Assembly (NCBI GenBank): GCA_964016885.1
Contig: OZ024744.1
Location: 87,482,001-87,546,000, forward strand
Length of the DNA stretch: 64,000 nt
Source: Eledone cirrhosa
Lineage: Eukaryota
Direction: 5' to 3'
Shown: positions 4,329 to 61,140 of the stretch, one piece after another
Layout: the number at the start of each line of letters is the position of its first letter
Position numbering within the stretch: position 1 is the stretch's first letter
Translations under genes and position numbers: made by a program
Notes under the pieces: model-generated
Database searches by the model: none
What the model saw: only the letters and a program-made list of their open reading frames with translations
What the model was told of the DNA's origin: nothing

Positions 4329-4381
4329 CTGCCTGAAGAGGTCACAGCCAATAATAGCTGTCACTGAAATATATATAGCAG
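4329..4381 (+). ncRNA. Minimal type I hammerhead (Penelope pLTR type)
   Basis: ctgc-CTGAAGA-ggtcacagc/gctgtcact-GAAA-tatatata-gcag, flanked by an inverted repeat at ~4238-4272/4395-4431. Confidence 0.75.
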
Positions 4382-4665: not shown

Positions 4666-4731
4666 TATTTCATTATATATATTTCAGGGATATCATATTA
4701 AAAATATGTTATGCCTTCTTCAGACAAAATA
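4666..4731 (-). ncRNA. Minimal type I hammerhead (inverted copy of 5805-5870)
   Basis: Lies in the left arm of the inverted repeat 4624-4832/5704-5912. Confidence 0.7.
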
Positions 4732-6121: not shown

Positions 6122-6244
6122 TGGGGAATCTTTTCTTTGTTTTTTGTGCTAAACAATTTGCTACACAAATTCAGAAACGAAATATATATATATATATATA
6201 TATACATTGATTTACATATATATATATATATATATATAAAGTTT

Positions 6245-6314
6245 GTCCTTCATCAGTAATCTTCCAACCATCATAGGCATTTCATCGCTTTAAAGACCAT
6301 ATACCTCCGGTTGG
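6245..6314 (-). ncRNA. Permuted-order hammerhead candidate, family 1, copy b
   Basis: As 6886-6955, but stem I 3' strand is aagatta (G-C becomes G.U, pairing retained). Confidence 0.7.
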
Positions 6315-6885
6315 TGCGAACAACGGCTAAAAAAAGTCGTTGGGACACGTAAATAAAGGGGACGCGAGGGTAAACAAACAAAATGGTTAAGCAACAGAAA
6401 GTGAGGAAGGAAAAGACAAGTCCCAGATTTCTATGAATTTAAGTTCGGTGAAATCGTGAACGAGAGAATAAAGACCATCAAACATGGTTGAAATGTGAGC
6501 AAGGAAGGAATTTCGCACAGGTCTAACGGGAGGAAGAAGAGGTCTAGTCTGCGAATTCGGTAAACATAAGTTCTGTGAAATCGCAGACGAGAAAAAAAAA
6601 AAAAAAAAAACGTCTGCGATTTCACAGAACTTATGTTTACCGAATTCGCAGACTAGACCTCTTCTTCCTCCCATTAGACCTGTGCGAAATTCCTTCCTTG
6701 CTCACATTTCAACCAGGTTTGATGGTCTTTATTCTCTCGTTCACGATTTCACCGAACTTAAATTCATAGAAATCTGGGTCTTGTCTTTTCATCCCTCACT
6801 TTCTGTTGCTTAACCATTTTGTTTGTTTACCCTCGCGTCCCCTTTATTTACGTGTCCCAGCGACTTTTTTTAGCCGTTGTTCGCA

Positions 6886-6955
6886 CCAACCGGAGGTATA
6901 TGGTCTTTAAAGCGATGAAATGCCTATGATGGTTGGAAGATCACTGATGAAGGAC
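6886..6955 (+). ncRNA. Permuted-order hammerhead candidate, family 1, copy a
   Basis: ccaacc-gg-aggtaT-A-tggtctt-taaagcgat-GAAA-tgcct-atgat-ggttgg-aagatca-CTGATGA-aggac. Stem III aggtat/atgcct, stem I tggtctt/aagatca, extra helix ccaacc/ggttgg. Confidence 0.7.
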
Positions 6956-7002
6956 AAACTTTTTTCATATGTAACCCATTTGCAACGCCGCAGCTCTATT
7001 AT

Positions 7003-10438: not shown

Positions 10439-11110
10439 TGAAAAAATGGGGAAAAGAATACTGCAGGTTGCACATGGATAACATGTTATAAAATGAGTCC
10501 CTCATCAGTGATTTGCCGACGATCATAGATATTTCATTGCATTAAAAATCATATACCTCACGTCGGTGCAATAATAACTAAATTAAGTTATTAGGACAAT
10601 TAAAACGCGTAAAGCGAGTGAGACAAGTAAACAACAAAGAAGAAAGCTAATCGTAGAGAGGAAGGGAACAAGCTACATAGTTATTCTGTTAGCATAAGCT
10701 AGGTGAATATATGAGCGCTTAGAAAAAAGACCTTTCGAGATGAATCCAAATGTAAGAAAGAAGGAAAATGTATTCGTTGCGAACGGGGTGAAGTGAGAAG
10801 GGGAGAAACAGTGAGTGAGTGAGTGGAAGTGTGAGGAAGAGTTAACTGACATGACAGAGGGGGTGAAAGAAAGTAGGAGAAACAGAGAGAACGAGGGAGC
10901 AGTAAGAGAGAGAGAGAGAAAAACAGAATCGCAGTTTAGGTAAATATATGTGAAAAAATGGGGAGAAGAATACTGCAGGTTGCACATGGATAACATGTTA
11001 TAAAATGAGTCCCTCATCAGTGATTTGCCGACGATCATAGATATTTCATTGCATTAAAAATCATATACCTCACGTCGGTGCAATAATAACTAAATTAAGT
11101 TATTAGGACA
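10439..11110 (-). mobile_element. Non-coding element with 160-bp direct terminal repeats (pLTR/retrozyme-like) in (TA)n
   Basis: 10439-10598 is almost identical to 10951-11110 (offset 512). Each repeat holds a permuted hammerhead (10497-10566, 11009-11078). Homologous to the 6.2-7.0 kb element. Confidence 0.8.
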
Positions 11111-11306
11111 TATATATATATATATATGTAGGGGGTATGTGTGCGTGTGTGTACATGCGTGTAAGTGTGTGTTGTGTGTATATGCGTGTTTGTATTGTGT
11201 GTATTTTTTATATAAACGTTTCACCACCATTACGGGTAGCCACAGCAAATACTCCCCTTCACACACACACACAGATATATATATTTATATATATTCATGT
11301 ATATAT

Positions 11307-14379: not shown

Positions 14380-14485
14380 TAGAGGGGGGGAGGAGAAAGC
14401 CTTCATCGGCTAGATACAGGACATCTAAAAGCAATTAGCGGCGCGCCCAAGGCTTTTTATCGACCAATACAAGGCCTTGGGCGCG

Positions 14486-14560
14486 CCGCTGATCGCTTTT
14501 AGGTGTCCTGTAATAAGCGCCGAAACTTCTATGATCTGCGGTTTACAGCTGATGAATGTT
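14486..14560 (+). ncRNA. Permuted-order hammerhead candidate, family 3, GUC site
   Basis: ccgctgatcg-ctttt-aggtGT-C-ctgtaa-taagcgcc-GAAA-cttct-a-tgatctgcgg-t-ttacag-CTGATGA. Stem I ctgtaa/ttacag is perfect. Confidence 0.7.
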
Positions 14561-15539
14561 TTCTTGTTTCGTACATCTTAAACTTTGTTTACAGTAACAA
14601 CACAGCTCATTTCGTTTCTTATAATTTTGTGCATATATATATATATATAAACAAAATTAACTCGAATATCGAGTTTTGAAACGCGAATGTATTAGAATAC
14701 GTAGGAAAATGGAAAAACTCATATACATACAGTATGGGCTGCAATTAGTGGGGCGGCCCATTTCCTATCTCAATGATGACGTACTCGTGTTAATACGAAC
14801 AAGCAGCATTTCTAACATTCAATGTAACTATATAATCTTACACAAATTTCCAATGTATTACTTTTGTAATAAAGTTTATTGCCACACTGGTTTCGTTCTT
14901 ATTTACTGGTTTCGTTCTTATTTACATTTCTTAAAAGGAAAGTAATTATATGCCACACCCCTACTATAGTTCTTCATCAGACCTCTTTGGGGAACAAACA
15001 TTTTTGATCGTCCTTTTTTTCTTTTTTTTCCTTTGAACTTCATTTGAGTTAATTGGATTCATTAGGGAAAAAATCAAATTTTAATTGATAATTAATTACA
15101 GTAGCATACCCCGTATATACACATACAGACATACGACTATACACATTCACATATATACGACCAGAGTATTGTAATAATATATATATATATATATATCTTC
15201 ATATGTCTGGCTATTATAAGCAATATGTGTTGTTATACACTTGCATATACTTACACACATACACACATACACACAAACCATACATGCATACATGTATATA
15301 TGCTTATATAGATTCGTGCATGCATTCATTCAGGAAAACGAACACAAACATGTGAGCGTACACCACGTATATGCATGCTTGCGTACAAACATGCAAAAAT
15401 ACATAGTTGCATGTAGATCCAGACAAAACAGTAATAAACAATGCATCCGTGGATTTACAAATCGGAAAATGATCGTTTATCTGCTGAAAACCATTACGTA
15501 AGGGATGATAATATCTAACGCAAATAAATAGCTTCACTT

Positions 15540-19139: not shown

Positions 19140-21055
19140 ATATAGTTCAAAATGGAACGGGAGAGGCAGTACGAACAAAGGTTTATTAGTTTCACGCTCT
19201 TGAGAGTGGGGGGCGGACGACGTTTCGGGCATAATCCCTTCTTCAGGCGAAAAGTGGGTGGGAAGAGAGTTCCGAGGGTGTGTAGCGGAGTGGGGGAGAG
19301 ACATTTAGAAAAAAGGGTGGAGGGGCGGTGGAAGGGGTACAAATAAAAAATAAAAAAATAAAAATAAAAATAAACATGAAGATAAACAAGTGGTGGAAGG
19401 ATATGGGGCGTGTAGGAGTGGTGGCGGGTGGAGTAGGGAGAGGGAGGCGGGGTGTCCGAGCGGGGAGGGCTGAAGGTGGTGTATGTGTGTAGGTGTACGT
19501 GTGTGTGTGTGTGTGTATGTGAATGTGGAAGTTGGGGGAAGAACGAGGTTCCATGTTCAGGAAAAGGTGTATGTGTGGGGTGGGGTGTAGGTCAGTGTGT
19601 GTGTGTGCGTGTGGATGGGGAAGGGTCAGAGTGGTGGGGTAGTGTGGAGAGGTTTCCGAAGGCTGAGTGTGTATATATGTGGGGGTACGCACGCGTGTGT
19701 GGTGTTTATACGTTTTGTGGATGTAGGTGGCGTGGTTCGAAAATAATTTTTTTGAGTGTATGTCTGTGGGTGAATTCCTAAGGTAGTTCCGTAGAGGGTG
19801 TGAAGAGTTGCCGGATATTTTCCATGTGATGGAGTAGATTGTGGGAACGATGGCCAGTGGTGTGTAATCCGTGCTTGTGTTAGTCGGAAGAGGGGAGATG
19901 TGGGGTGCGCGCGCACAGGAAGTGGTGACAGGATCAAGGCAGGATGAGGGTAGAGGAGAATGACAGGTGGACAGAGCTGTGTGTCTGTGTGTGCGGAGAA
20001 GTGGTCAGAGGGTCAAGGCATAGCAGCAGTAGAGGAGAATGGCGGGTGGAGAAAGTCAGTGGGTCAGTGTGTGCGGAGGTGCGGTGGACTGGGGAGAGGA
20101 TGGGTAGGTGTGAAAGGTGGAGTGGGGATGGTGTCATGCGGGGTGATGGGGTGTGAATTAGTAGAGGTGTTAGTGGGATGTGTGTGTGGGTAGAGCGGGG
20201 AGAGGGAGAGAAAAGGTGTGGGACGGTGGAGGGAGTGCAGTGTACTGGTGTGTGCATATTTGGATGAGTGTGTGTGTGTGGTGAAAGGGGTGTTAGTATA
20301 CTGGTGGTGGGGAAAGGGTTGAATGCGGGTGTGTTAGTGGGGGTCAGTGGTGGTAGGGTGTGTAGAGTGGGTGGTGTAAGTGGGTGTGGGTGGGTGGGTG
20401 TGTTCGTGTGCGTGGGGTCGGGGGGATGTTAGTGGTATTAGTTGTGGGGTGCTGGGAGCTGGTGTATGGGTGAGGGTTAGTGATGGTAGTAGGGTGTGTG
20501 GATAGTGTGAGTGCGTGTATATATGTACCTGTGTGTTTGTGCGTGATAGGGGGAGGGGTGGGGATGTTAGTATTGTTAGTTGGGGGAGAGTGGTCAGGGG
20601 TGGGGGTGTTAGTATTGTTAGTTGTGGGGTGGGCCAAGGGGGTGGGCGGTGAAAAGGAGGAGTGTGTTAGTGGGGTTAGTGGGGGATATGTGTGTGTGTG
20701 GGGGGGGGGGGGGGAACCGGGCGGTCGAAGGCTAACTGAATAGGGGTGGGGAGTTCAGGCCGGGGGGAGTTTGGGTCTGTAAGGTGAAGATGGTGCGTTG
20801 TTCGACGCTGAGGCGGGTGGCGGGTGTTCCGTAGCATTGGAGTGGGCCACAGACTGTGAGGTGGTGCGCGGAATGTCCAGGGGAGCCAAAGTGGCGGGCG
20901 ATGGGGGAACTCCCGCCGAGACGAATGTCCCGGAGGTGTTCGGTGAAACGGTCCGCCCGGAGGCGTGCATTTTGACCGACGTAGGTTTCGGTGCACTCCG
21001 TGCAGCGAAGTCCATAGACTAGGTTGGAGGAGGTGCAGCGGAAGGCGCACCGGAC
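19140..21055 (-). mobile_element. Penelope-like element 3' portion: GIY-YIG endonuclease C-terminus (20735-21050), C-rich low-complexity 3' region and HHR
   Basis: FRCTSSNLVYGLRCTECTETYVGQ...RFTEH...PIARHF...EQRTIFTLQTQTPPGLN. Confidence 0.9.
19215..19249 (-). ncRNA. Minimal Penelope-type hammerhead in the 3' region of a GIY-YIG element
   Basis: Minus strand reads gc-CTGAAGA-aggg-attatg-ccc-GAAAC-GTC-gt, with AATAAA downstream. Stem I is weak. Confidence 0.7.
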
Positions 21056-21253
21056 AGAGAGAGAGAGAGAGAGAGAGTGGCCGTTGGGACCCTGGAAGGT
21101 GGTGGTGTTGGTGATGTGGGGGCCGGTGTTGCAACGAGATCTGGAACAGGGAAGGTTCGTTTTAATCATTTTCAAACCCAGAAAAAAGAGAGATATAAAT
21201 AAAAAGGGAAAAAAAAAAATGTTTCTTCCTAATAATCGTCTCTTTCTCCCTCT

Positions 21254-21545
<292 letters not shown>

Positions 21546-24289: not shown

Positions 24290-25130
24290 TGTGCACCTTC
24301 TCTGGTGTTTGAACGTCATGATAATCTTCGATTTCAGGTTGACCGCATCATCCTTCAATCTCCATGGCCTCGGAGAGGCATAGCCTACACTTCCTGTTTC
24401 CAGCCGAATATTCATTTGCATGTTGAACGGTACTCTAGTTGAGATTATACGGGGTGGCGTTGTCTTTCAAGTCCCATATTATGTCCTCCAGCCTTGTGGA
24501 GTGCCTCTTGCTCCTGTCCTTGAAAGAGTTTGTGTGATTATACATCCGCGATTTAAAGGTCGTGGATTTGCGCCGATGTAGGTGCGCTTGGTGTTGTACA
24601 TGATAACCACACATTTATATACTAGGCTCTTTGTTAGGCATCTTCCCTGCAGGGGGCATTGTGTGCCCGCTCTGCAGTTGCATGTTCGGTCGTTGTGTTG
24701 CTCATTTCCAACGCTGGGTCCTTGGTCTACTACGACACTCCCCCGGTTCTCTGGGTGTTGTTCTGTCGGTGCGGTGGGCTCCCATCCGTCACTCAGTTCC
24801 GCCCAGCATTCGATTACAGCGTCTTCCGCGGGCTTGGCGGGCATCAATATAGTTGGAAATCCTGTCTACAAGGGGCCCTCCGTGCCCCGCGGGACCGTCA
24901 GTCGCCCGCTGCTGTTGACGGTCGAGTTTCCCCAGCTTCACCCCGTTGGTTTTGGCCATGTAGTCTGCCATGTTAGGTGCGGTGGAAAAGGAGAACTTCA
25001 TGATGTGGCGGTGGAATATCCTGGGGTACCTGCTCGACGGCAGGAAGCACTCGTCCAACGCTCGGAAGAAGAGGCCTGGTGCATTGCTGCGTACATGCTT
25101 CGAATACGGCGCGTTATGTAATGGTCTTAG
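24290..25130 (-). pseudogene. Penelope-like element fragment of a second clade (CNCR..CPL type): RT C-terminus plus GIY-YIG, frameshifted
   Basis: PPYSKHV...IFHRHIMKFSFSTAPNM, CNCRAGTQCPLQGRCLTKSLVYK...YIG, then in another frame FKSRMYNHTNSF...IWDLK...CRLCLSE. Confidence 0.85.
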
Positions 25131-37404: not shown

Positions 37405-37444
37405 GTAATGATGATGATGGTGATGATGATGGTTATGGTGCTGT

Positions 37445-37476
<32 letters not shown>

Positions 37477-37556
37477 AACATCATCATCATCATCATCATC
37501 AACAGCACCATAACCATCATCATCATTACCATCATCATCATCATCATCATCATCAT
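36158..37556. repeat. (GAT)n/(GGT)n trinucleotide low-complexity tract ending in a fold-back to (CAT)n
   Basis: Direct reading; the inversion point is near 37476. Confidence 0.95.
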
Positions 37557-44243: not shown

Positions 44244-44945
44244 CATGCACATATATATATATATGTACCTATGGGTTTACCGAACATTTATTATAATGAT
44301 CGGTTTGTTTGTAAACAAACAGCCCGAATTATTAGCCGTACAGTGTTCGGCAACCATCGTTGCCCTTTTGTTCAACACTGACAAAGGAACGATGAACTAG
44401 CTTCTAGCTTATTAGCTGTCATCATCACCGTATACGTTCCTGTCAGTAGATTGAACGTTTGAAAGTATATACTTTCCTTATGCATATTAACGGCTGAGCA
44501 GCATAATTTGCATATCGAGTGAGTTAGTCGGCGGGGCGTACCGAAAACGATAAATGGAAAAAATGAAATTTCATTTCTCACTTAAGTATCAGCCGTACTA
44601 AGAGTGATAAATGAAATTTCATTTTTTTCCATTTATCGTTTTCGGTACGCCCGGCCGACTAACTCACTGGATATGCAAATTAGGCTGCTCAGCCGTTAAT
44701 ATGCACCAGGAAAGTATGTACTTTCAAACGTTCAATCGATTGACAGGAAGGTATACGGTGGTGATGACAGCTAATAAGCTAGAAACTAGTTCATCGTTCC
44801 TTTGTCAGTGTTGAACAAAAGGGCAACGATGGTTGCCGAACACTGCACGGCTTAATTCGGGCTGTTTGTTTACAAACACACCGAGCATTATAATAAATGT
44901 TCGGTAAACCCATACGCACATATATATGTGTGTGCATGTATGTAT
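44240..44945. repeat. Fold-back inverted repeat (~340-bp arms) with a variant hammerhead in each arm
   Basis: 44240-44583 vs 44601-44945. acggtg-GTGATGA-c-agct-aata-agct-a-GAAA-ctag-TT-catcgt at 44755-44797; inverted copy at 44389-44431. Confidence 0.9.
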
Positions 44946-48167: not shown

Positions 48168-48874
48168 ATATATGGAGAATATAAATGGGTGTGTAGTTTT
48201 TCTATTTAAGGTAACTTAAAATGCAGTGGGAATATGAAGAAAGCAAGAACTTGGGGGTCCTCATCAGTTGTCTACTGGAGGTCACGGATATTTCTACGCA
48301 TTAAAGACAAGATATCTACCCCCAGGGCGTTCAATAACTGGGTAAGTTATTGGGAAAACGGAAGAAAGTGGGAAGGGGAAGAACAGAGAAAACAGTAACA
48401 AAACAGCGAAAAAAAACTACAAACCGAGCAATGTGCGAGCAACTATAGGTAGGAAAATCCAAGACCACTCGATAATAAAACTTAAGTTCAAGACTGAGTA
48501 GTCGAGAGAAACAAGACATACGTCAGGTCGCCGCAGTTGTAAGTGAGAAGAGAACTGCTAAACGGTCAGACGAGGGGGTGAAAGTGAGAAGGAGAAAGGG
48601 AGAGGAAGAAAGTGGGGGTAAGAGTAGATAAGGAGAAGAGGACGGGAAGAAAGAGGGCTGAGAGTAGAAAGTGGCAAAATAGGAAGGTAGAAGGGGAAAG
48701 AAGAATATATGGAGAATAGCAATGGCTGTATAGTTGCTATTTAAGGTAGATTAAAATGCAGTGGGAATACGAAGAAAGCAAGAACAGGTGGGGGGGGGGG
48801 GGGAGTTTACCTCATCAGTTGTCTACTGGGGGTCTCGGATATTTCTACGCTTTAAAGACAAGATATCTACCGCC
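48168..48874 (-). mobile_element. Non-coding element with ~155-bp direct terminal repeats, each holding a permuted hammerhead (family 4)
   Basis: 48168-48322 resembles 48706-48871. Motifs at 48256-48325 and 48807-48874 read agataT-C-ttgtct-ttaaWgcgta-GAAA-tatcc...agacaa-CTGATGA. Confidence 0.8.
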
Positions 48875-49154
48875 TATATGTATGTATGTATTGCTGAACA
48901 TTTATTTAATTATATCCTAGAAAAAAAATATTATTTTTGTATTTAATAAATTCCATGGGTTTTCTTTTATACCAGCAATATATGTATCAAAACTCAAATT
49001 CTTCTGTTACTATGGTTGTTCATAAATTCGGTAATTCTGCTAAATTTGCTATATCAATCTTGACTTCCAAATATTAAACAAAATCAACGCTCTTTCTATC
49101 GTTATTGGCGACACTTATCCACTAGTCTCTGAACATTATAACTTTCTCAAGGGT

Positions 49155-51320: not shown

Positions 51321-52685
51321 AGAAAATGAGATTTTTTTATAAAAAAAAAAATACGAGATGTCCGACATGGACGAAAGTATAAGCAAAAGAAATTGAAAAT
51401 GCAACTGGAATCTTTTTAAGAATATTTATTTTTTTCCGTTACCGGTTTCACAGTTCGTATGCTTTTCAAAAGTATAATTGTGATTGAGGGTTTGTGGTTT
51501 GTCCTCCAATATATATACATATATACAGAGAGAGAGGGGAGGGAAAGAGAGAGAGGGGAGAGAAAGAGAGAGAGGGGTGCAGATTAGACAGATAGACAGA
51601 TAAGCCAACTGACACTCAGTCGTGTAAGCAGACAATCCCTGAGCAGGTAGATAGACAGAACAAAAAAAAAGGCATTGTAATATAGGCAAAGAAGAGTGCC
51701 GATTGTAATGTAAAGTAGAAAAAGCTATGACATGTAAGTTAATGTCAATATAGTTAATATAAGGAAGATCCATGAAATATATCCCATGGAGAAATGACAT
51801 TATGTTACATTAGGATTACATCTTTTTAATCATTTTAAAATTTACGAGAAAATTAAATTCGTATAAGACTTATTATGACTCCTGGCGATATAATGATGAG
51901 AAAATATATGTAAAAAAAAACAAATATAGCAAAAAATTATCGTATTTTACATAAGAAATATAAGTGACATCGGAGCTTTATTTGTTTATAGATATAACCC
52001 TCTGTCTACTTGACCGTAGTGTTTGAAGATGTCTGATAATTGTTCAAAAAGCTTCGCGAAGCATAAAAATGGAATAGCTGAAAGTGCTTACACTCTATTT
52101 TACCCACAAGGTCGTCTAATTCAAAAACTGCAGTTATATCTACATTAAATATATTTTCTCAACAATCTGGTTAGTTAGTTACTCAAAAGCATAATTTTCC
52201 TTTTTTTTTTGTGGGGCTGGGTATTCAGCTTCAATTGTATATGAAATTCAATTAGTCAAAAATGTGTTTTGATAGGCTGAGCTTGTTAAAAATTGAATGT
52301 CTCCAGGTAGATCGTTGAACAGAACGTTGGAGTAACAGGTGTTGTCATCGTGTAATAATAATAATAATGATTTCTTTATTGGCCACAAGAGCTGACATCA
52401 AGAAAAACATTACAGACGGCACAGGACGGTACAGGACGGTACGTTGTCTGTTTTGTGCGTGTAAACATTTTTATTATTTATATAAGAAAAGAAATAAAAT
52501 ACATAGAAATATATATAAAAAATAAAAATGAAAGTTCAAACAATGAAAAATTCCCCAATAGGACAAAACCTCCTAGGGTTACTGATGGCGAAAACCACAC
52601 AAAAGACACGGCAACACTGACCACCAGGGCCAGCCCCCTCTCTCAATGTTTTCCCATTCCTCAAACTACAAACGCATAATAATAC

Positions 52686-54456
52686 ATGGGATGGATAGAT
52701 TACAAAAAAGCATTCTACATGGTATCTCATTCTTGGATAACCAAAAGCCTAGAGATCTTCAAGGTGGCAGATAACGTCAGACAGTTGTTGAGAAAAAGTA
52801 TGAAGTCCTGGGAAACAGAGTTAACATCGGGGGGAGAATCCTTGGGAGGCGGGAAGATCAAGAGAGGTATCTTCCAGAGAGATAGTTTGTCCCCTCTGTT
52901 GTTTGTCCTTGCCCTGATACCCCTGACCACTATATTGCGAAAAGTGAGAGCAGGATACGAGTTGGGAAAAGGAGAGCTTACCATCAACCACCTCCTCTTC
53001 ATGGACGATCTTAAACTCTTTGGGAAGAGTGAGAAGGAGTTGGATTTACTTGTTGACACTGTACGTATTTTCAGCAATGATATATGTATGGAATTTGGTA
53101 TTAATAAGTGTGGAGTCCTAGTGATGAAGAGGGGTAAATTGAGCAGAAGCAACGGAATCCAGGTACCAGTAGGTGAGATGATAAAGGAAATTGACACTGA
53201 AGAGGGATACAATATTTAGGTGTTCTGGAGACAGATGACATTAAGAACAAAAATAAATGAAGGAATTGATAAGATCTGAGTACATTAGGAGAGTAAGGAG
53301 CGTATTAAAGTCACATCTAAATAGTAGGAATGCCATAAGTGCAGTGAATTCCCGAGCTGTGTCTATTATTAGGTACAGTGTGGGAATTCTGAAATGGAAT
53401 GTTACTGAACAAAAAGAAATGGATAGGAAGACTATGGATAGGAAGCTATTGACTATCTACAACATGTTCTCCAAGAGGAGTGATTTCGATAATTCTACTT
53501 AAAGAGATCTGAAGGTGGAAGAGGTCTTATCAGCATAGAGGACTCTGTTCAGATGGAGAAAAACCTACACAAATACGTGATCGATAGTAAGGAGCCAATG
53601 CTCAGAATTGTACTGAAGGAGAGGACAATAGACCAGGGGATGTGTTAGGAGGAAATAACAACAAGGAGGAAGAGCAACCTTCATGAAAAATCCTTTCATA
53701 ATATCTTCTTTAAGAAAACTGAATTTAGAGATCCACAGACATGGAACTGGTTAAAAAGAGGAGACCTTAAAAAGGCTACAGAAGGAATGATAATGGCTGC
53801 GCAAGAGCAGGCACTCAGAACGAAGTGGGTGAAACACCATATTTACAAGGAGGGCGAAACACCATATTTACTGTGTAGGATCTGTGGAGAGAGAAAGGAG
53901 ACTGTGGCTCACCTTGTATCCGTGTGTAAACACCTAGCCCAGACTCACTATAAAGGCTGGAGCCATGATGTGATGGGCAGAGTGATCCACATTCTGAGAA
54001 GTGGTATGAGCATAAGCCAGAGTCGGTGATAGAAAACGATCAGGTGAAGGTGCTATGGGATTTTAGGATACAGGCGAACAATAAATTAGAACACAATAAG
54101 CCTGAACTGGTGGTTTACGACAAGGAAAAAAGATCGTGCCTGATTGTAGATATAGCATGCCCATTTGAAACGAGAGTGCAAGAAAAGGAGAGGGAGAAAA
54201 GTAACCGATACTAGGACCTAAAGTAGGGGTTAAACAGGATTTGAAACTGCCATGAAATCAAGGTCGTTCCGATTGTCATAGGCGCATTAGGTACTATCTC
54301 AAAGTGTTTCCAAGGATGGTTAAAGAAGGTTAGTCCAGCCCCGCTTTTTGGAACACTTCTAAAGGCATGCTTGCTGGGAACAGCAAGAACCCTCCGATAC
54401 GTCCTGAATATCTGAGGCTGCAGGTAAATAACATCAATGACTGAGACTCAAAGAAC
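52686..54456 (+). mobile_element. R4/Dong-type RLE LINE, 5'-truncated and decayed (family X)
   Basis: [47 protein letters not shown] and PE/DIACP motifs. Preceded by taataata and followed by (TAA)n. Confidence 0.95.
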
Positions 54457-54553
<97 letters not shown>

Positions 54554-54608
54554 GAAAGGGTGTAAACGAGGCTCATATGGCTGTAAGGATCAGCTTCTGG
54601 TTAACAAA

Positions 54609-56519
54609 ATGATACTGGAAGATTGTCATAATAGACACAAAAATCTATCGATTGCTTGGATAGATTATAAAAAAGCATTTGATAGTTTGCCACACAGTTG
54701 GATTGAAAAATGTTTAGAGATTTTCAAAATATCCCCCGTTGTCAGGAGGTTTTTGTCATTCAGTATGATGACATGGAGAACGACACTCCTTTTGAATAGT
54801 GAAACAAAATCACTGGAAGCTGGAGAAGTTAACATTAATTGTGGAATTTTTCAGGGTGACTCTTTATCACCGCTTTTATTCTGCATCGCACTTATACCAT
54901 TAAGTAAAATGCTCAATGAAACAAAACATGGATATAGAGTCTATGACAAAACCATTAATCACCTGTGCTACATGGATGACCTGAAACTATTCGCAAAAAA
55001 TGATGAACAATTGCAAGGGCTATTATCCACTGTGAAGCAGTTCAGTGATGACATTAAAATGGAGTTTGGACTGGATAAATGCGCCAAAGCAACGTTCACC
55101 AGAGGAAAGCTGCTGAAGAGTTCAGACATTAATCTTGATCGGGGGAACGTGATAAGAGAGCTTGATCAAGAACAAACTTACAAATATCTAGGTGTTTGTG
55201 AAGGAGACGGAATCAAGCACTCGACAATGAGGGAAAGGATAAGGAAGGAATGTTACCGCAGAGTCAGAGCAATCTTAAGAACGGAATTGAATGCAAGGAA
55301 TAGGATCGATGCCATAAACACGCTTGCCATACCAGTAGTAACCTACAGTTACAATGTCATCAACTGGTCAAGCACAGAGATCCGTAGGCTCGATACAAAA
55401 ATCCGAAAATTCTTAACCATGCACAGAATGCATCACCCTAAGGCAGACATAGATAGAATATATCTCCCTAGGAAAGAAGGAGGACGTGGGTTAATCCAGT
55501 TAGACATTGCGTTGAAAACTGCAACAATTGGATTATCCACATATCTAAGGGAATCACATGATTGGATGATCAAACTCGTTTTGAAACACGAAAGCACCAA
55601 AAGATCATATTCCATTACAAAAGATGCACAAAGATACAGTAATGGACTACAAATTTCAGAAGTCCCATTTACTGCTGAAATGGAAAACACAGGAAAAGCA
55701 AAGCTGGTAAAAGTAACTGCAAAGAAAGAACTGCTACAGAAACTGGCTAAGAAATGGCAAGAAAAGCCTCTGTATGGAAAATACCCAGAGCGAGCTAACA
55801 ATCCTGATGTTGACAAAACTTTAACCCATCAGTGGTTGGCATCCTCTGGACTGAAATCGGAGACTGAAGGACTGATTATATCCGCACAAGATCAGTGTCT
55901 GCCAACAAAAAATTACCAAGCCAACATAATAAAAAATGGGTGCAGCCCATTATGCCGTGTATGCAAAAAACAACCAGAGACCATTGACCATATAATTTCA
56001 ATGTGCAGTCCTATAGCTCCAACCGAATACCTAAACAGGCATGACAGAGCTGCACAATACATACATTGGATAATGTGTAAGCATTTTGACCTGCCCCATC
56101 AAAAGAATTGGTGGGAGCATCAACCACCTCCCATACTTGAAAAAGATCACATCTCAATCTTGTGGAACTTTAGCATCCAAACAGACCGAAAAATAGATGC
56201 AAATAGACCTGATATAATATTGAAGGACTTTCAAAGGAGGGTATGCCTGCTAATTGATATGTCTGTTCCAATAGACAAGAATGTATCTATAAAAACATTT
56301 GAAAAATTGAGCAAGTATAAGGACCTGGAGATAGAAATTGGAAAAATGTGGAAATTGAGAACTAAAACAATACCAGTGGTTGTAGGCGCTCTGGGAATGA
56401 TACCTAAGGGGTCTAACGACTACTTATCGCAAATCCCAGGAAACCCGCGTATAGGAGAAATACAAAAGATAGTACTAATGGGAACTGCCCATATACTAAG
56501 GAAGATCCTGTCAATATAA
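54609..56519 (+). CDS. R4/Dong-type LINE ORF: RT, CCHC zinc knuckle and restriction-like endonuclease (5'-truncated element 54551-56660, family Y)
   Basis: Uninterrupted 636 aa: [67 protein letters not shown]. (TAA)n on both sides. Confidence 0.95.
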
Positions 56520-56659
56520 GTACATCACAAGTCTAAACACTAAGGATGCATGTGTGAATATGTGTGTTCTTTCTTGAACATGGCGGACCTTGTTGTCTCT
56601 TGAGGTCACTGGTTGTGACTTGGTGATAACTCGTATAAACATAAAGCAAGATAAATGCA

Positions 56660-56721
<62 letters not shown>

Positions 56722-57539
56722 TAGGGAAGAAAACGCACATGGTAGATATATATCGTTATGGAATCGCTGCCGTAAGTTTTTGATTTTTACTTATTTAAAA
56801 CAACAGTGATAGAATAATTCTTATTACAAATGAAGTATAAGATTACAAAGGACGCTCAGCAAGCCATAACGCATTACTTTACGGCATAGGGCCCCAATAT
56901 GTAATATTTAATTTTGGATCAGAAATGTTATAGTCGAAAAAGAGGAAAATGGCTAAATAGCTAAATGGCTAAGTGGACAGACAGGCAAATAATTTCACCA
57001 CCAACACCACCACCGCCACCATCACCACTACCACGCCAAAAACTCTAGTCAAGTTACCTCAACTTCTATTTCTACTTCAACTTCAACACCACCACTACAG
57101 TACTACGATCACATCACCACCACCATTGCCTCATTATCGCTACCGCCGCTATTCTCTTCCACTACTTCCTGCTAAGTACTACTAGCACAGCACCATCACC
57201 ACCAACACCACTGCCTCATTATCACTACCGCCGCTATTCTCTCCCACTACCTCCTGCTAAGACATGCATCGTAATGTCCCCATTAAAAGAAGAAGGCATC
57301 AAAAGATATAAATAGACTGATTTGATGACCCGGTCAAAAAATCAAAAAACCAAAAATCAAAATCAAAACAGCACAGCAACAACGAAAAACGTAAAGAAAA
57401 GAAAAATGAAAAGAAAAACAAACAGACAGACAGAGAAGGAAAAAAAAAAAAACTAAGTTAGACATTCAAACATTACATTACAATGAAACTTATGCTTATT
57501 CTTTTTTTTTTTTTTTACCTATTTATTTGTTTGTTTATT

Positions 57540-60500
57540 TATGTTCGTCTACAGCGTGATAGTGCGACACTAAAATCACCGGTGGTTATGTAACCATACA
57601 TTCACCAATTCTCGATAAGAGTGTTTAAATGTCGAACCTAAACAGTTCGAATAACGGTGAAGTGGAGACTGGAATGTCATGTGACAGACTCTCACCCAGC
57701 AGGTGCTCCCTGGCTCAGCAGCAGGGACCTGGCTGTCAACCAAATACTGCTGGTGTCGGCGGAAGAAGAAGAAGGAAAGCGACCAGAACCAACTGGACGA
57801 AAGAATTGATTAGAACTGTTATGCAATGTTACCTGAAGAGTAACCCCAAGGAGAAAGGCTATAGGAAACGGATGCATAACATCTGGAACGAGATTGGTCT
57901 ATTTAAAGTAGATGAACAAAAATTGGCCAGGCAGGCTCGGGTAATAAGAACTAATGGATGGATAAGCGAGCTGGAACTGGAGGAACTGAGCAGAGAGATT
58001 AGGTTGGAAATGGAGGGTGGAGTATGCCAGGCAAACGAGCCAGTGGGAAATGAAGGTGAAGAGGTTGAGAGAACGGAGGAACCATCCGAAGAAGACAATG
58101 ATCTGAATGCTGAAATAAATAATACCTGGGACAAAGATACGGCCATTGAGGAGATGAATGCTGACGGGCTAGGACAAGATTTGGTTGATATCCTAAACTT
58201 AGTGGTAGATGAATTGAACAATGATAGTGGGAAACCTATGAACCTAAGATTTGTAGACAGGAAAAAGTTAAAAGAAACAACAGCTAAGGTAAACAAAGTC
58301 ATCCCATACCTTGAGGCGAGGAGCCTTCACCAGTGCAACAATATCCTCAAAGCAACAGCAAATGCGGTGAGAAAATTACTTGGCATAAAAGCGAGAGGAA
58401 ACAACAAACAAGAAAGATCAGAACCTTGGTGGAAGAAACGACTGAATGGTCAAATCAGGGAAATGAGAAATGAGATTGGAAAGCTTGAGTCCCTACTGAA
58501 TGGGACACTAAAAAACATAGACACTGAAAATAGACTGGAAATAAAGTACAAAACTTGGAGGAAAAAGCTAAATATTATCATAGAGGAACTGAAGCAACGC
58601 ATTGTAGCAAAGAGTGCAAAAATTAGGCGATACGAGAGCAGAGTCAGTCAGTATAGACAGAACCGCATGTTTGACAACAACCAGAAGATGCTGTTTGGAC
58701 AGCTTGAAGGGAAAGAAAGAGGCAACGACTTGATCACTGAGGCGGAACAAACTAAGACATTCTGGAGAGGAATATGGGAGCAGGATGTTAAACATAATGA
58801 CCAGGCAGTGTGGATTGAGACAGTACAAAAGGAGATTAGTGAACAGGCACACCAACAAACTGATTTGAGTATCACAGTTGAAATTCTTAAGGGGCAGGCC
58901 AAAAAAAAATTAACCAACTGGAAATAACCAGGCCCAGATGGTGTGCAAGGGTATTGGATTAAAAATATAACATCCCTCCACTCGAAACTGACAACCATGT
59001 TCAATGACTGCTTGATGTCAGGTGAGGTACCAGAGTGGTTGACAAAAGGTACCACAGTTCTGGTAATGAAAGACCGAATCAAGGGTAATGATGTTACCAA
59101 CAATAGACCTATCACATGTCTGTCCGTAATGTGGAAACTGTTGACAAGCATTATGTCTGAGGAAATCTACCATCACCTCCACACAAACAACTTGTTAACG
59201 GACGAACAGAAAGGATGCCGAAAGAAGTCGCGTGGTACAAAGGACCAGTTACTTATTGATAAGATGGTAATGAGGAATTGCAAGAGGAAACACACTGGTC
59301 TTGCCATGGGATGGATAGACTACAAAAAGGCATTTGACATGGTGCCTCATTCTTGGATCACCAAAATCCTAGTGATCTTCAAGGTGGCAGATAACATGAG
59401 ACAGTTGTTGGGCAAAAGTATGAAGTGCTGGAAAACAGAGTTAACATCAGCTGGAGAATCCCTGGGAGTCGTGAAGACCAAGAGAGGTATCTTCCAGGGA
59501 GATAGTCTGTCCCCACTGTTGTTTGTCCTTGCCCTGATGCCCCTGACCATTATACTGCGAAAAGTGAGAGCAGGGTACAAGTTGGGAAAGGGAGAGCTTA
59601 CCATCAATCACTTCCTCTTCATGGACGATCTTAAGCTCTTCGGGAAGAGTGAGAAGGAGTTGGATGTGCTTGTTGACACTGTCCGTATTTTCAGCAATGA
59701 TATATGTATGCAATTTGGTATTAGTAAGTGTGGAGTCCTTGTGATGAAGAGGGATAAATTGAGCAGAAGCAACGGAATCCAGATACCAACAGGTGAGATG
59801 ATAAAGGAAATTGACACTGAAGAAGGATACAAGTATTTGGGTGTTCTGGAGACTGATGACATCAAGAACAAAAAAAAATGAAGGAATTGATAAGATCTGA
59901 ATACATTCGGAGAGTAAGGAGCGTATTAAAGTCACATATGAACAGTAGGAATGCCATAAGTGCAGTAAATTCCCGAGCTGTGTCTATTATTATGTACAGT
60001 GCGGGAATTCTGAGATGGAATGTTGCTGAACAAAACGAAATCGATAGGAAGACTAGGAAGCTATTGTCTATCTACAACATGTTCCACAAGAGGAGTGATG
60101 TCGATAGACTCTACTTAAGGAGATCTGAAGGTGGAAGAGGTCTTATCAGCATAGAGGACTGTGTTCAGATGGAGAAAAACAACCTACACAAATACGTGAC
60201 CGATAGTAAGGAGCCAATGCTCAGAATTGTACTGAAGGAGAGGACAATAGACCAGGGTATGTCCAAAGAGGAATTAACAACAAGGAGAAAGAGCAGCCTT
60301 CATGAAAAATCCCTTCATAGTACCTTCTTTGAGAAAACGGAATTCAGAGATCCACAGACATGGAACTGGTTGAAAAGAGGAGACCTTAAAAAGGCTACAG
60401 AAGGAATGCTAATGGCTGCGCAAGAGCAGGCCCTCAAAACGAAGTGGTTGAAACACCATATTTACAAGAAGGAGGCTAGCCCACTGTGCAGGATCTGTGG

Positions 60501-61140
60501 AGAGAGAGAGGCGACTGTGGCTCACATTGTATCCGAGTGTAAACACCTAGCCCAGACTCACTATAAAGGCTGGTGACATGATGTGAGTGATGGGCAGGGT
60601 GTTCCACTGGCACCTATGCAAAGTAAACAATTTACCACATTCTGAGAAGTGGTATGAGCATAAGCCAGAGGCGGTGATAGAAAACGATCGTTTGAAAGTG
60701 CTGTGGGATTTTAGGATACAGACGGACAAGAAACTGGAACACAATAGACCTGACCTGGTGGTTTTGGATAAGGAAAAAAGATCGTGCCTGATTGTGGATG
60801 TGGCCTGCCCATTCGACACGAGAGTGCAAGAGAAGGAGAGGTAGGAAATTAACCGATACCAGGGCTTAAAATGGGAGGTAAAAAGGATTTGGAACTGCCA
60901 TGAAGTCAAAGTGGTCCCGATTGTCATAGGCGCACTAGGTACTATCTCAAAAAGTTTCCAGAGATGGTTAAAGAAAATTGGCCCCGCTCCGCTTTTTGGA
61001 ACGCTTCAAAAGGCATTCTTGCTGGGAACAGCAAGAACCCTCCGATACGTCCTGAATATCTGAGGCTGCAGGTAGTGGCTTGATATTCATTTCAACAAAC
61101 TTTCCAGTTAACTAACATCAATGACTGAGACTCAAAGAAC
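57540..61140 (+). mobile_element. Near full-length R4/Dong-type RLE LINE (family X) with disablements
   Basis: Single long ORF 57629-61063, broken by an in-frame stop at NWK*PGPDG (58925), a frameshift in the A-run at ~59875 and later stops. The 3' end caatgactgagactcaaagaac+(TAA)n is shared with the 52.7-kb copy. Confidence 0.95.

Follow-up and report, generated by a model that had tools for sequence, protein, structure and literature searches.

A predicted hammerhead variant of type SGC in high-copy Penelope-type repeats of Eledone cirrhosa, with a probable link to the Naiad elements

Introduction

Hammerhead RNAs in which the cleavage block (S) is followed by GAAA (G) and then by CUGAnGA (C) have been named type SGC by Eckert et al. 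(2023, PMC10085705), who report in vitro cleavage at 0.007–0.19 per min and a need for all four stems. As far as the accessible text of that report goes, the type comes from metatranscriptomes and, one doubtful bacterial case aside, has no example in the genome of a known organism. The same authors assumed CUGAnGA to be inseparable from its stem II strand and found the link between stem III and the I–II helix hard to fit to the crystal structure, and in the SGC rows available from the published alignment stem II follows CUGAnGA without a break save for one additional U in nearly all cases (PMC10085705).

The Naiads, a group of Penelope-like elements, were reported to be without a canonical hammerhead and to carry only the flags 'HHR_core' or 'HHR_half_core' (Craig et al. 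2021, PMC8557442); eight of them are marked 'half core' in the accessible part of that work, Naiad_Ovul and Naiad_Esco among them. The literature we covered, which included few subscription journals, held no paper linking non-circular hammerheads to Penelope-like elements and none linking a kink-turn to a natural hammerhead.

Here we describe a motif found in 64,000 nt of Eledone cirrhosa DNA (contig OZ024744.1, positions 87,482,001 to 87,546,000 of the forward strand), a stretch which is referred to as the window and on which our position numbers are based. The copy at 14390–14630, to which a preliminary description had drawn attention and which we call the focal copy, is a decayed member of a repeat with tens of thousands of genomic copies that specifies a hammerhead-type RNA with a scrambled block order, and it is not special among its relatives.

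Results

The focal copy and its subfamily

All of the letters named in the preliminary description are present in the focal copy: GUC at 14505–14507, CTGTAA at 14508–14513 with TTACAG at 14543–14548, GAAA at 14522–14525 and CTGATGA at 14549–14555 (see Table 1 for the full anatomy). Some of the weight placed on them shifts once the subfamily is aligned (38 rows, four of which are repeats of the same places). The GUC presented as the classic site is the usual one for this subfamily, with G in 33, U in 38 and C in 36 of the 38 rows, and the perfect 6-bp stem I is indeed there but owes its sixth pair to a private mutation seen in 1 of 38 rows. What had been read as an AAGCG linker consists for the most part of the stem II 3' strand (GCGCC), the partner of which (GGCGC) lies upstream of the cleavage block instead of 3' of CUGAUGA. 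The inverted copy reported upstream also exists, but it extends from about 14390 to 14467 rather than from 14400 to 14459 and is missing about 31 nt; it retains the subfamily letters in stems III and I at the places where the forward copy is mutated. As had been claimed, the focal copy is the most divergent of the permuted hammerheads in the window, with a score of 25.4 bits (E 0.002) compared to 61–122 bits for the other six, under a model which was built without the focal subfamily and whose alignment contained two of those six. This divergence is partly due to decay.

Table 1. Features of the focal copy and positions of the other motif copies in the window.
Feature	Position	Strand	Remark
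Inverted, internally deleted copy of the same pseudo-LTR	14390..14467	-	About 31 nt deleted
Start of the 5'-truncated forward copy	14468..14479	+	Only the P6 3' strand (5' hairpin) and UUG; 5' closing strand P5a missing
Stem II 5' strand, GGCGC	14480..14484	+	Pairs with 14517-14521; same placement in other subfamilies
Helix P4 5' strand (14486-14494) and U-rich insert (14495-14501)	14486..14501	+	
Block S: stem III 5' strand (14502-14506), stem I 5' strand (14508-14513)	14502..14513	+	Predicted cut after C14507
Block G: stem II 3' strand (14517-14521), GAAA (14522-14525), stem III 3' strand (14525-14529)	14517..14529	+	
3-nt bulge UAU and helix P4 3' strand (GAUC U GCGG)	14530..14542	+	
Block C: stem I 3' strand (14543-14548), CUGAUGA (14549-14555)	14543..14555	+	Closing strand comes next in other copies, deleted here
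Pseudo-LTR 3' tail, up to the (TA)n run	14556..14630	+	
Full-length motif, subfamily A	6850..6962	+	Kink-turn-like elbow
Full-length motif, subfamily A	6238..6350	-	Inverted partner
Full-length motif, subfamily B	11002..11113	-	
Full-length motif, subfamily B	10490..10601	-	Tandem copy, 512 nt from the 11002..11113 copy
Full-length motif, subfamily C	48249..48360	-	
5'-truncated motif, subfamily C	48800..48875	-	Tandem copy, 551 nt from the 48249..48360 copy

Other motif copies and features of the window

A descriptor for the S-G-C order, with the cleavage block followed by GAAA and CUGAUGA and with thresholds of ≥5 for stem I and ≥2 for stem III, detected seven sites in the window, where the counts in 40 resampled windows averaged 0.1 and never exceeded 1. 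No hammerhead family was returned at E ≤ 1 when the whole window was searched with Rfam. An Rfam match to MIR8643 at 14413–14514 was rejected as a product of the inverted repeat, and long perfect inverted repeats at 6516–6684, 44490–44695 and 37410–37536 likewise give spurious matches to miRNA families.

The window also contains minimal Penelope hammerheads in the canonical order, at 4333, 5813, 8031 and 28877 on the forward strand and at 4723 and 7906 on the reverse strand, in which GAAA runs directly into (TA)n so that the target microsatellite could supply stem III. At 20732–21457 and 19246 (-) there are a GIY-YIG endonuclease fragment of a C-terminal-EN Penelope element and a canonical minimal hammerhead about 1.5 kb downstream of it. 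A further endonuclease fragment at 24479–24865 (-) has a CNC..CPL motif resembling those found in two other loci (L092 and L093), whose endonuclease frames are presumably of the Hydra clade to judge by their motifs. Several broken reverse transcriptase (RT) frames of non-LTR retrotransposons located at 52683–60576 are unrelated to the motif.

Architecture and covariation across subfamilies

We examined the architecture of the motif using an alignment of 21 near-complete copies, hand-picked from 78 distinct sequences of about eight subfamilies and leaving out two subfamily D rows which had been misaligned by MAFFT in a first version. The layout is 5'-P5a-[hairpin P6]-stem II-P4-elbow-stem III-NUH^stem I-short linker-stem II'-GAAA-stem III'-elbow-P4'-stem I'-CUGANGA-P5b-3', and it contains six covarying helices, namely P5 (which joins the 5' end to the bases after CUGANGA), hairpin P6 (absent in one subfamily), stem II, P4, stem III and stem I. 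Pairing was found in 89.8% of cells with both-side changes in 24 of the 32 pairs, and slid controls gave 25–46%; none of 500 shuffles matched the pairing of the 21 copies, a control which overstates significance because the copies are related. Changes on both sides were seen for 4/5 pairs of stem I, 3/5 of stem II, 3/5 of stem III and all six of P4 (93.7% paired), which extends the stable 5–7 bp helix of stem III. The core nucleotides are invariant in 21/21 copies, where GAAA and CUGANGA are so by selection and U16.1 and the 1n A are unselected, and 20 of them have retained the catalytic set in full, including a valid NUH, with AUA or AUC rather than GUC at most cleavage sites.

Pairing of stem II with the bases following CUGANGA, as in published SGC hammerheads, was rejected, as these five nucleotides make at most 3/5 pairs with the stem II strand in all 21 copies; the 5' strand makes 4–5 of the 5 pairs in 18/21. 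The first base after CUGANGA nonetheless makes the core-proximal pair 10.1–11.1 in 15 of the 21 copies (as G.U, U-A or A-U; 8/500 shuffles). In the focal subfamily it is the 5' strand that makes this pair, as it does the rest of stem II, and in subfamily C it comes from neither.

Stem III and P4 are separated by an elbow consisting of a 3-nt bulge followed by G.A and A.G (15/21) or A.U (6/21), and U.U is found next to the elbow pairs in nine copies. It should be noted that the bulge-strand GA of the elbow belonged to the search pattern with which the copies were collected; when the pattern does not require it, about three quarters of the excess genomic matches still keep this GA. The focal subfamily has the elbow replaced by Watson-Crick GAUC/GAUC with a bulge and a U-rich insert.

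On the basis of its core (CUGANGA, GAAA and NUH) and covarying stems I, II and III, the motif is identified as a predicted hammerhead. Its order is S-G-C and not the cyclic S-C-G order of hammerhead types I–III. It shares with type SGC this order, a short linker between stems I and II and a putative interaction helix (P4), and it departs from that type in having no complete stem II strand directly after CUGAnGA. The structure proposed in the preliminary description had the block order and the stem I pairing right and left out stem II, P4, the elbow and the closing helix (P5), and the order itself had already been published. Its central claim that a permuted hammerhead fold is conserved while the sequence changes is well founded, given the covariation in the 21 copies and the finding of the focal copy by a model lacking its subfamily, but the support it saw as 'independent' is not, as the subfamilies share a common origin and are connected by an intermediate one (L006, L105 and L138).

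Genome-wide abundance and element anatomy

The pattern GAAA-N7-GA-N14-CTGANGA has 25,677 matches in the genome (G000) compared to 347 for the reversed control, and when the GA is omitted there are 37,470 matches compared to 4,395; the 23-nt spacing between GAAA and CUGANGA recurs genome-wide. Searching the 3.0 Gb genome with the focal copy DNA produced 825 candidates, 40 of which were scored, and 41 matches, and a 26-letter core has 161 exact genomic matches. Contigs of four runs examined for expression did not extend over the motif core and speak neither for nor against it. Subfamily B has 1,435 exact 26-mer matches and forms arrays of a 515-nt unit. One of these (G000:C1:81546808-81593616) is a retrozyme-like array of at least 80 units with a 515-nt period.

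Motif copies are often tandem, and in most subfamilies the 3' ends fall into two classes at about +15 and at +60 to +65 nt after the core. The unit of subfamily D is non-coding, measures 753 nt and comprises an inverted 5' piece and a tail, with (TA)n on either side. The 515-nt arrays and 753-nt units match the pseudo-LTR (pLTR) anatomy described in the accessible part of the Naiad report for Penelope-like elements, and the two 3'-end classes resemble the optional tail of these elements (PMC8557442). With a pLTR in tandem or inverted arrangement, an optional tail and a microsatellite target, the repeat has the sequence hallmarks of a non-autonomous Penelope-like element. The Penelope-style insertion with an inverted 5' piece which had been suggested for the focal copy is borne out by the 753-nt unit in (TA)n and by the arm at 14390–14467.

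The Naiad link and the search for a coding partner

We compared the motif with the last 270–350 nt of 53 published Naiad consensus sequences which were read by eye, and in this part seven (from octopus, squid, coral and ctenophore) have the same layout. The ends of Naiad_Obim and Naiad_Ovul agree with subfamilies B, E and F in their helices, elbow and 23-nt spacing and in the letters of the hairpin loop, and the layout is shared by the ends of Naiad Esco, Amil, Aacu, Anas and Bfor, the last with a 2-bp stem I. Six nematode Naiad ends (Naiad-1/2/3_Nbra, Hcon, Hpol and Asuum), also read by eye, are complete type CSG motifs with long interaction helices; only two CSG examples had been published in 2023. 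The part viewed of the other 40 of the 53 3' ends has no such motif, bar a possible S-G-C form in Ptep.

Two further strings were seen at Naiad 3' ends. A CGGGUG ... CACCUG motif with an inner hairpin is shared by the viewed ends of Naiad CGi, Sglo, Olur, Tgra, Pmar, Skow, Pfla and 2_Chem, which span cnidarians to hemichordates; it is a candidate further ribozyme. The ends of Naiad Mgal, Bpla, Mphi, Scon and 1_Movir carry a putative Twister-like string.

Three Naiad-directed patterns had no matches in the Eledone genome and no autonomous Naiad was found with them, no RT frame was found upstream of the motif in 29 loci of the subfamily closest to Naiad_Ovul, and the motif units are without a reading frame such as the N-terminal GIY-YIG plus RT frame that marks the Naiad clade. 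Frames beside the motif in three loci (L090, L016 and L030) were considered as a coding partner and rejected. They encode a Penelope RT with a C-terminal endonuclease, presumably of the Hydra clade as judged from their motifs, and were treated as neighbours because one of them comes with a separate canonical hammerhead and the motif is set apart from the frame by (TA)n runs. With no autonomous Naiad recovered by these searches, the link to the Naiads depends on the supplement sequences that we read by eye. The motif is probably the Naiad ribozyme.

Truncation breakpoints

In a sample of 95 copies from loci chosen by the 3' half only, 35 are 5'-truncated within 140 nt and 60 are not. The breakpoints of 14 of the 35 truncated copies fall in the 17 nt before GAAA, no further 5' than the predicted cut, where 4.5 would be expected (p = 5e-5), and the next 18 nt contain four of the 35. 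Only two of these 14 are exactly at the predicted cut, and the breakpoint of the focal copy is about 40 nt upstream of it. The excess fits templates which start at the cut, and equally the stalling of reverse transcriptase in the pseudoknot.

Head-to-head inversion junctions were observed between the predicted cut and GAAA in four loci (L082, L130, L141 and L148), which is where they should lie if the cDNA folded back on itself at an end set by cleavage.

Decay of the focal copy

Four changes are private to the focal copy (each in 1/38 rows of the subfamily alignment), namely G14503, A14513, U14527 and a change after CUGAUGAA. The first and third of these are in stem III, which has a U.U mismatch at pair 3, and the 5-nt deletion directly after CUGAUGAA removes the 3' strand of the closing helix. 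The rest of the subfamily has a 5-bp stem I, with a compensatory A-U to U-A swap in 7/38 rows, and a clean GAUGU/ACAUC stem III. The 5' truncation of the focal copy falls within the 5' hairpin, so that most of this hairpin and the 5' closing strand before it are absent as well. The unmutated family letters of the inverted arm suggest that the private changes postdate insertion. In place, the inverted arm and 14468–14512 are predicted to form a long hairpin (-86.2 kcal/mol, z -11.8) which sequesters the 5' half of the focal copy, and when the arm is left out the nested fold predicted for the remainder does not exceed shuffles in stability (z 0.24, from a program that does not consider pseudoknots).

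Discussion

We give a probability of about 0.7 to the reading that the focal stretch is a truncated and mutated Penelope-type pseudo-LTR copy, likely derived from a Naiad, with a hammerhead core in S-G-C order, whose intact relatives are likely to self-cut after NUH while the focal copy is likely to cut poorly or not at all. In an intact copy, P4 and the short linker would bind stems I and II to each other in the manner of the interaction helix of SGC ribozymes, the elbow (kink-turn-like in most subfamilies and a bulge in the focal one) may fold the stem III arm back toward stems I and II, and P5 would clamp the ends where the backbone opens after A9 or 10.1. Cleavage after NUH would free unit-length RNA from tandem transcripts, and this RNA might be reverse-transcribed in trans by a Naiad-type enzyme as part of transposition. 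A wider proposal is that the hammerhead of Naiads, in ctenophores through to cephalopods, is a closed-cage and non-circularly permuted one, which in this genome is present in >25,000 copies, has an arm bent by a kink-turn (U.U beside tandem G.A) and is switched on for cleavage by a host L7Ae-family protein; in this full form we consider it speculative and unlikely.

The preliminary description went further for the focal copy itself, in effect taking 14480–14600 to be an efficient ribozyme and the best first choice for an assay, and we find this highly improbable. In its favour the copy has GUC at the cleavage site, six pairs in stem I, and both the core and the 5-bp stem II intact, but set against these are the private U.U mismatch in stem III, the private origin of the sixth stem I pair, the loss of P5 and P6, a predicted nested fold no better than shuffles and an inverted arm which in place pairs with the 5' half. 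The subfamily B copy at 11002–11113 (-) is a better test construct within the window.

For the motif as a whole, the fold might instead be a 3'-end recognition or priming signal for the RT of the element, with the hammerhead letters kept and cleavage nil or negligible. The unusual backbone path after A9, the missing first stem II pair of subfamily C and the many long copies which run intact through the predicted site (60/95) would suit this, as would the weak in vitro cleavage described for minimal Penelope hammerheads in the accessible part of PMC4209133. We nevertheless judge it distinctly improbable, as the complete catalytic set and a valid NUH are kept in 20/21 copies and by eye also in ctenophore, coral and cephalopod Naiads, and published SGC ribozymes cleave with an extra base after A9 already present (PMC10085705, as far as accessible). 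Still less probable, in our view, is that the motif cleaves only as a swapped dimer of neighbouring tandem units. Its copies are often tandem and dimer cleavage has been described for the minimal Penelope hammerheads (PMC4209133, in the part available), but these have the 1–2 bp stem that forces dimers, unlike the stable 5–7 bp stem III extended by P4 seen here, where each strand also has its partner within about 110 nt.

Among the closest described systems is type SGC (HRIMA-1 and SGC variant; PMC10085705), whose accessible description has in common with the Eledone motif the S-G-C order, a short linker, a fourth helix between the distal sides of stems I and II, the full catalytic core and two core pseudoknots. 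The Eledone motif differs in its stem II strand, which is predicted to lie at the 5' end either wholly (in the focal subfamily) or mostly (where only pair 10.1 stays behind), in the connection of P4 to stem III on both strands by way of the elbow, in the helix P5 that closes its ends, and in belonging to a family of animal retroelements. The extra U after CUGAnGA in published SGC sequences means that the position at which the Eledone motif opens already tolerates insertion. With Naiad elements, as far as described in the accessible part of PMC8557442, the Eledone families share the pLTR, inverted 5' piece, optional tail and (TA)n targets, and they differ from Naiads in having no reading frame. 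The non-LTR retrozymes and minimal Penelope hammerheads also occur in tandem as non-coding units, each a few hundred bases long and carrying a single hammerhead, and retrozymes and the Eledone motif units are both likely to come from Penelope-like pLTRs, but according to the parts of the two reports available the retrozyme and minimal Penelope hammerheads are of type I and often minimal and dimeric, unlike the Eledone motif (PMC4209133; bioRxiv 10.64898/2026.07.22.740005). The elbow resembles the kink-turns described in the accessible sections of two papers in its 3-nt bulge with G.A and A.G pairs (PMC5061560), and its A.U form is as in T. thermophilus Kt-23 (PMC2790904); it differs in sitting inside a hammerhead arm, and this likeness is one of sequence pattern only. 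Among described kink-turns, those of box C/D and U4 RNAs need more than ions to fold (PMC5061560).

Our comparisons identify the motif, at the level of sequence and predicted structure, as a real, high-copy and structurally new variant of the type-SGC hammerhead. This would place a further rewired hammerhead in an animal genome at very high copy number and with many covarying subfamilies. The elbow suggests an answer to the puzzle raised by Eckert et al. in the accessible text of their report of how stem III reaches the I–II helix (PMC10085705). The motif may also offer an answer to why the Naiads, which are among the most abundant invertebrate retroelements, seemed to be without the ribozyme of other Penelope-like elements, as standard descriptors are blind to the S-G-C order.
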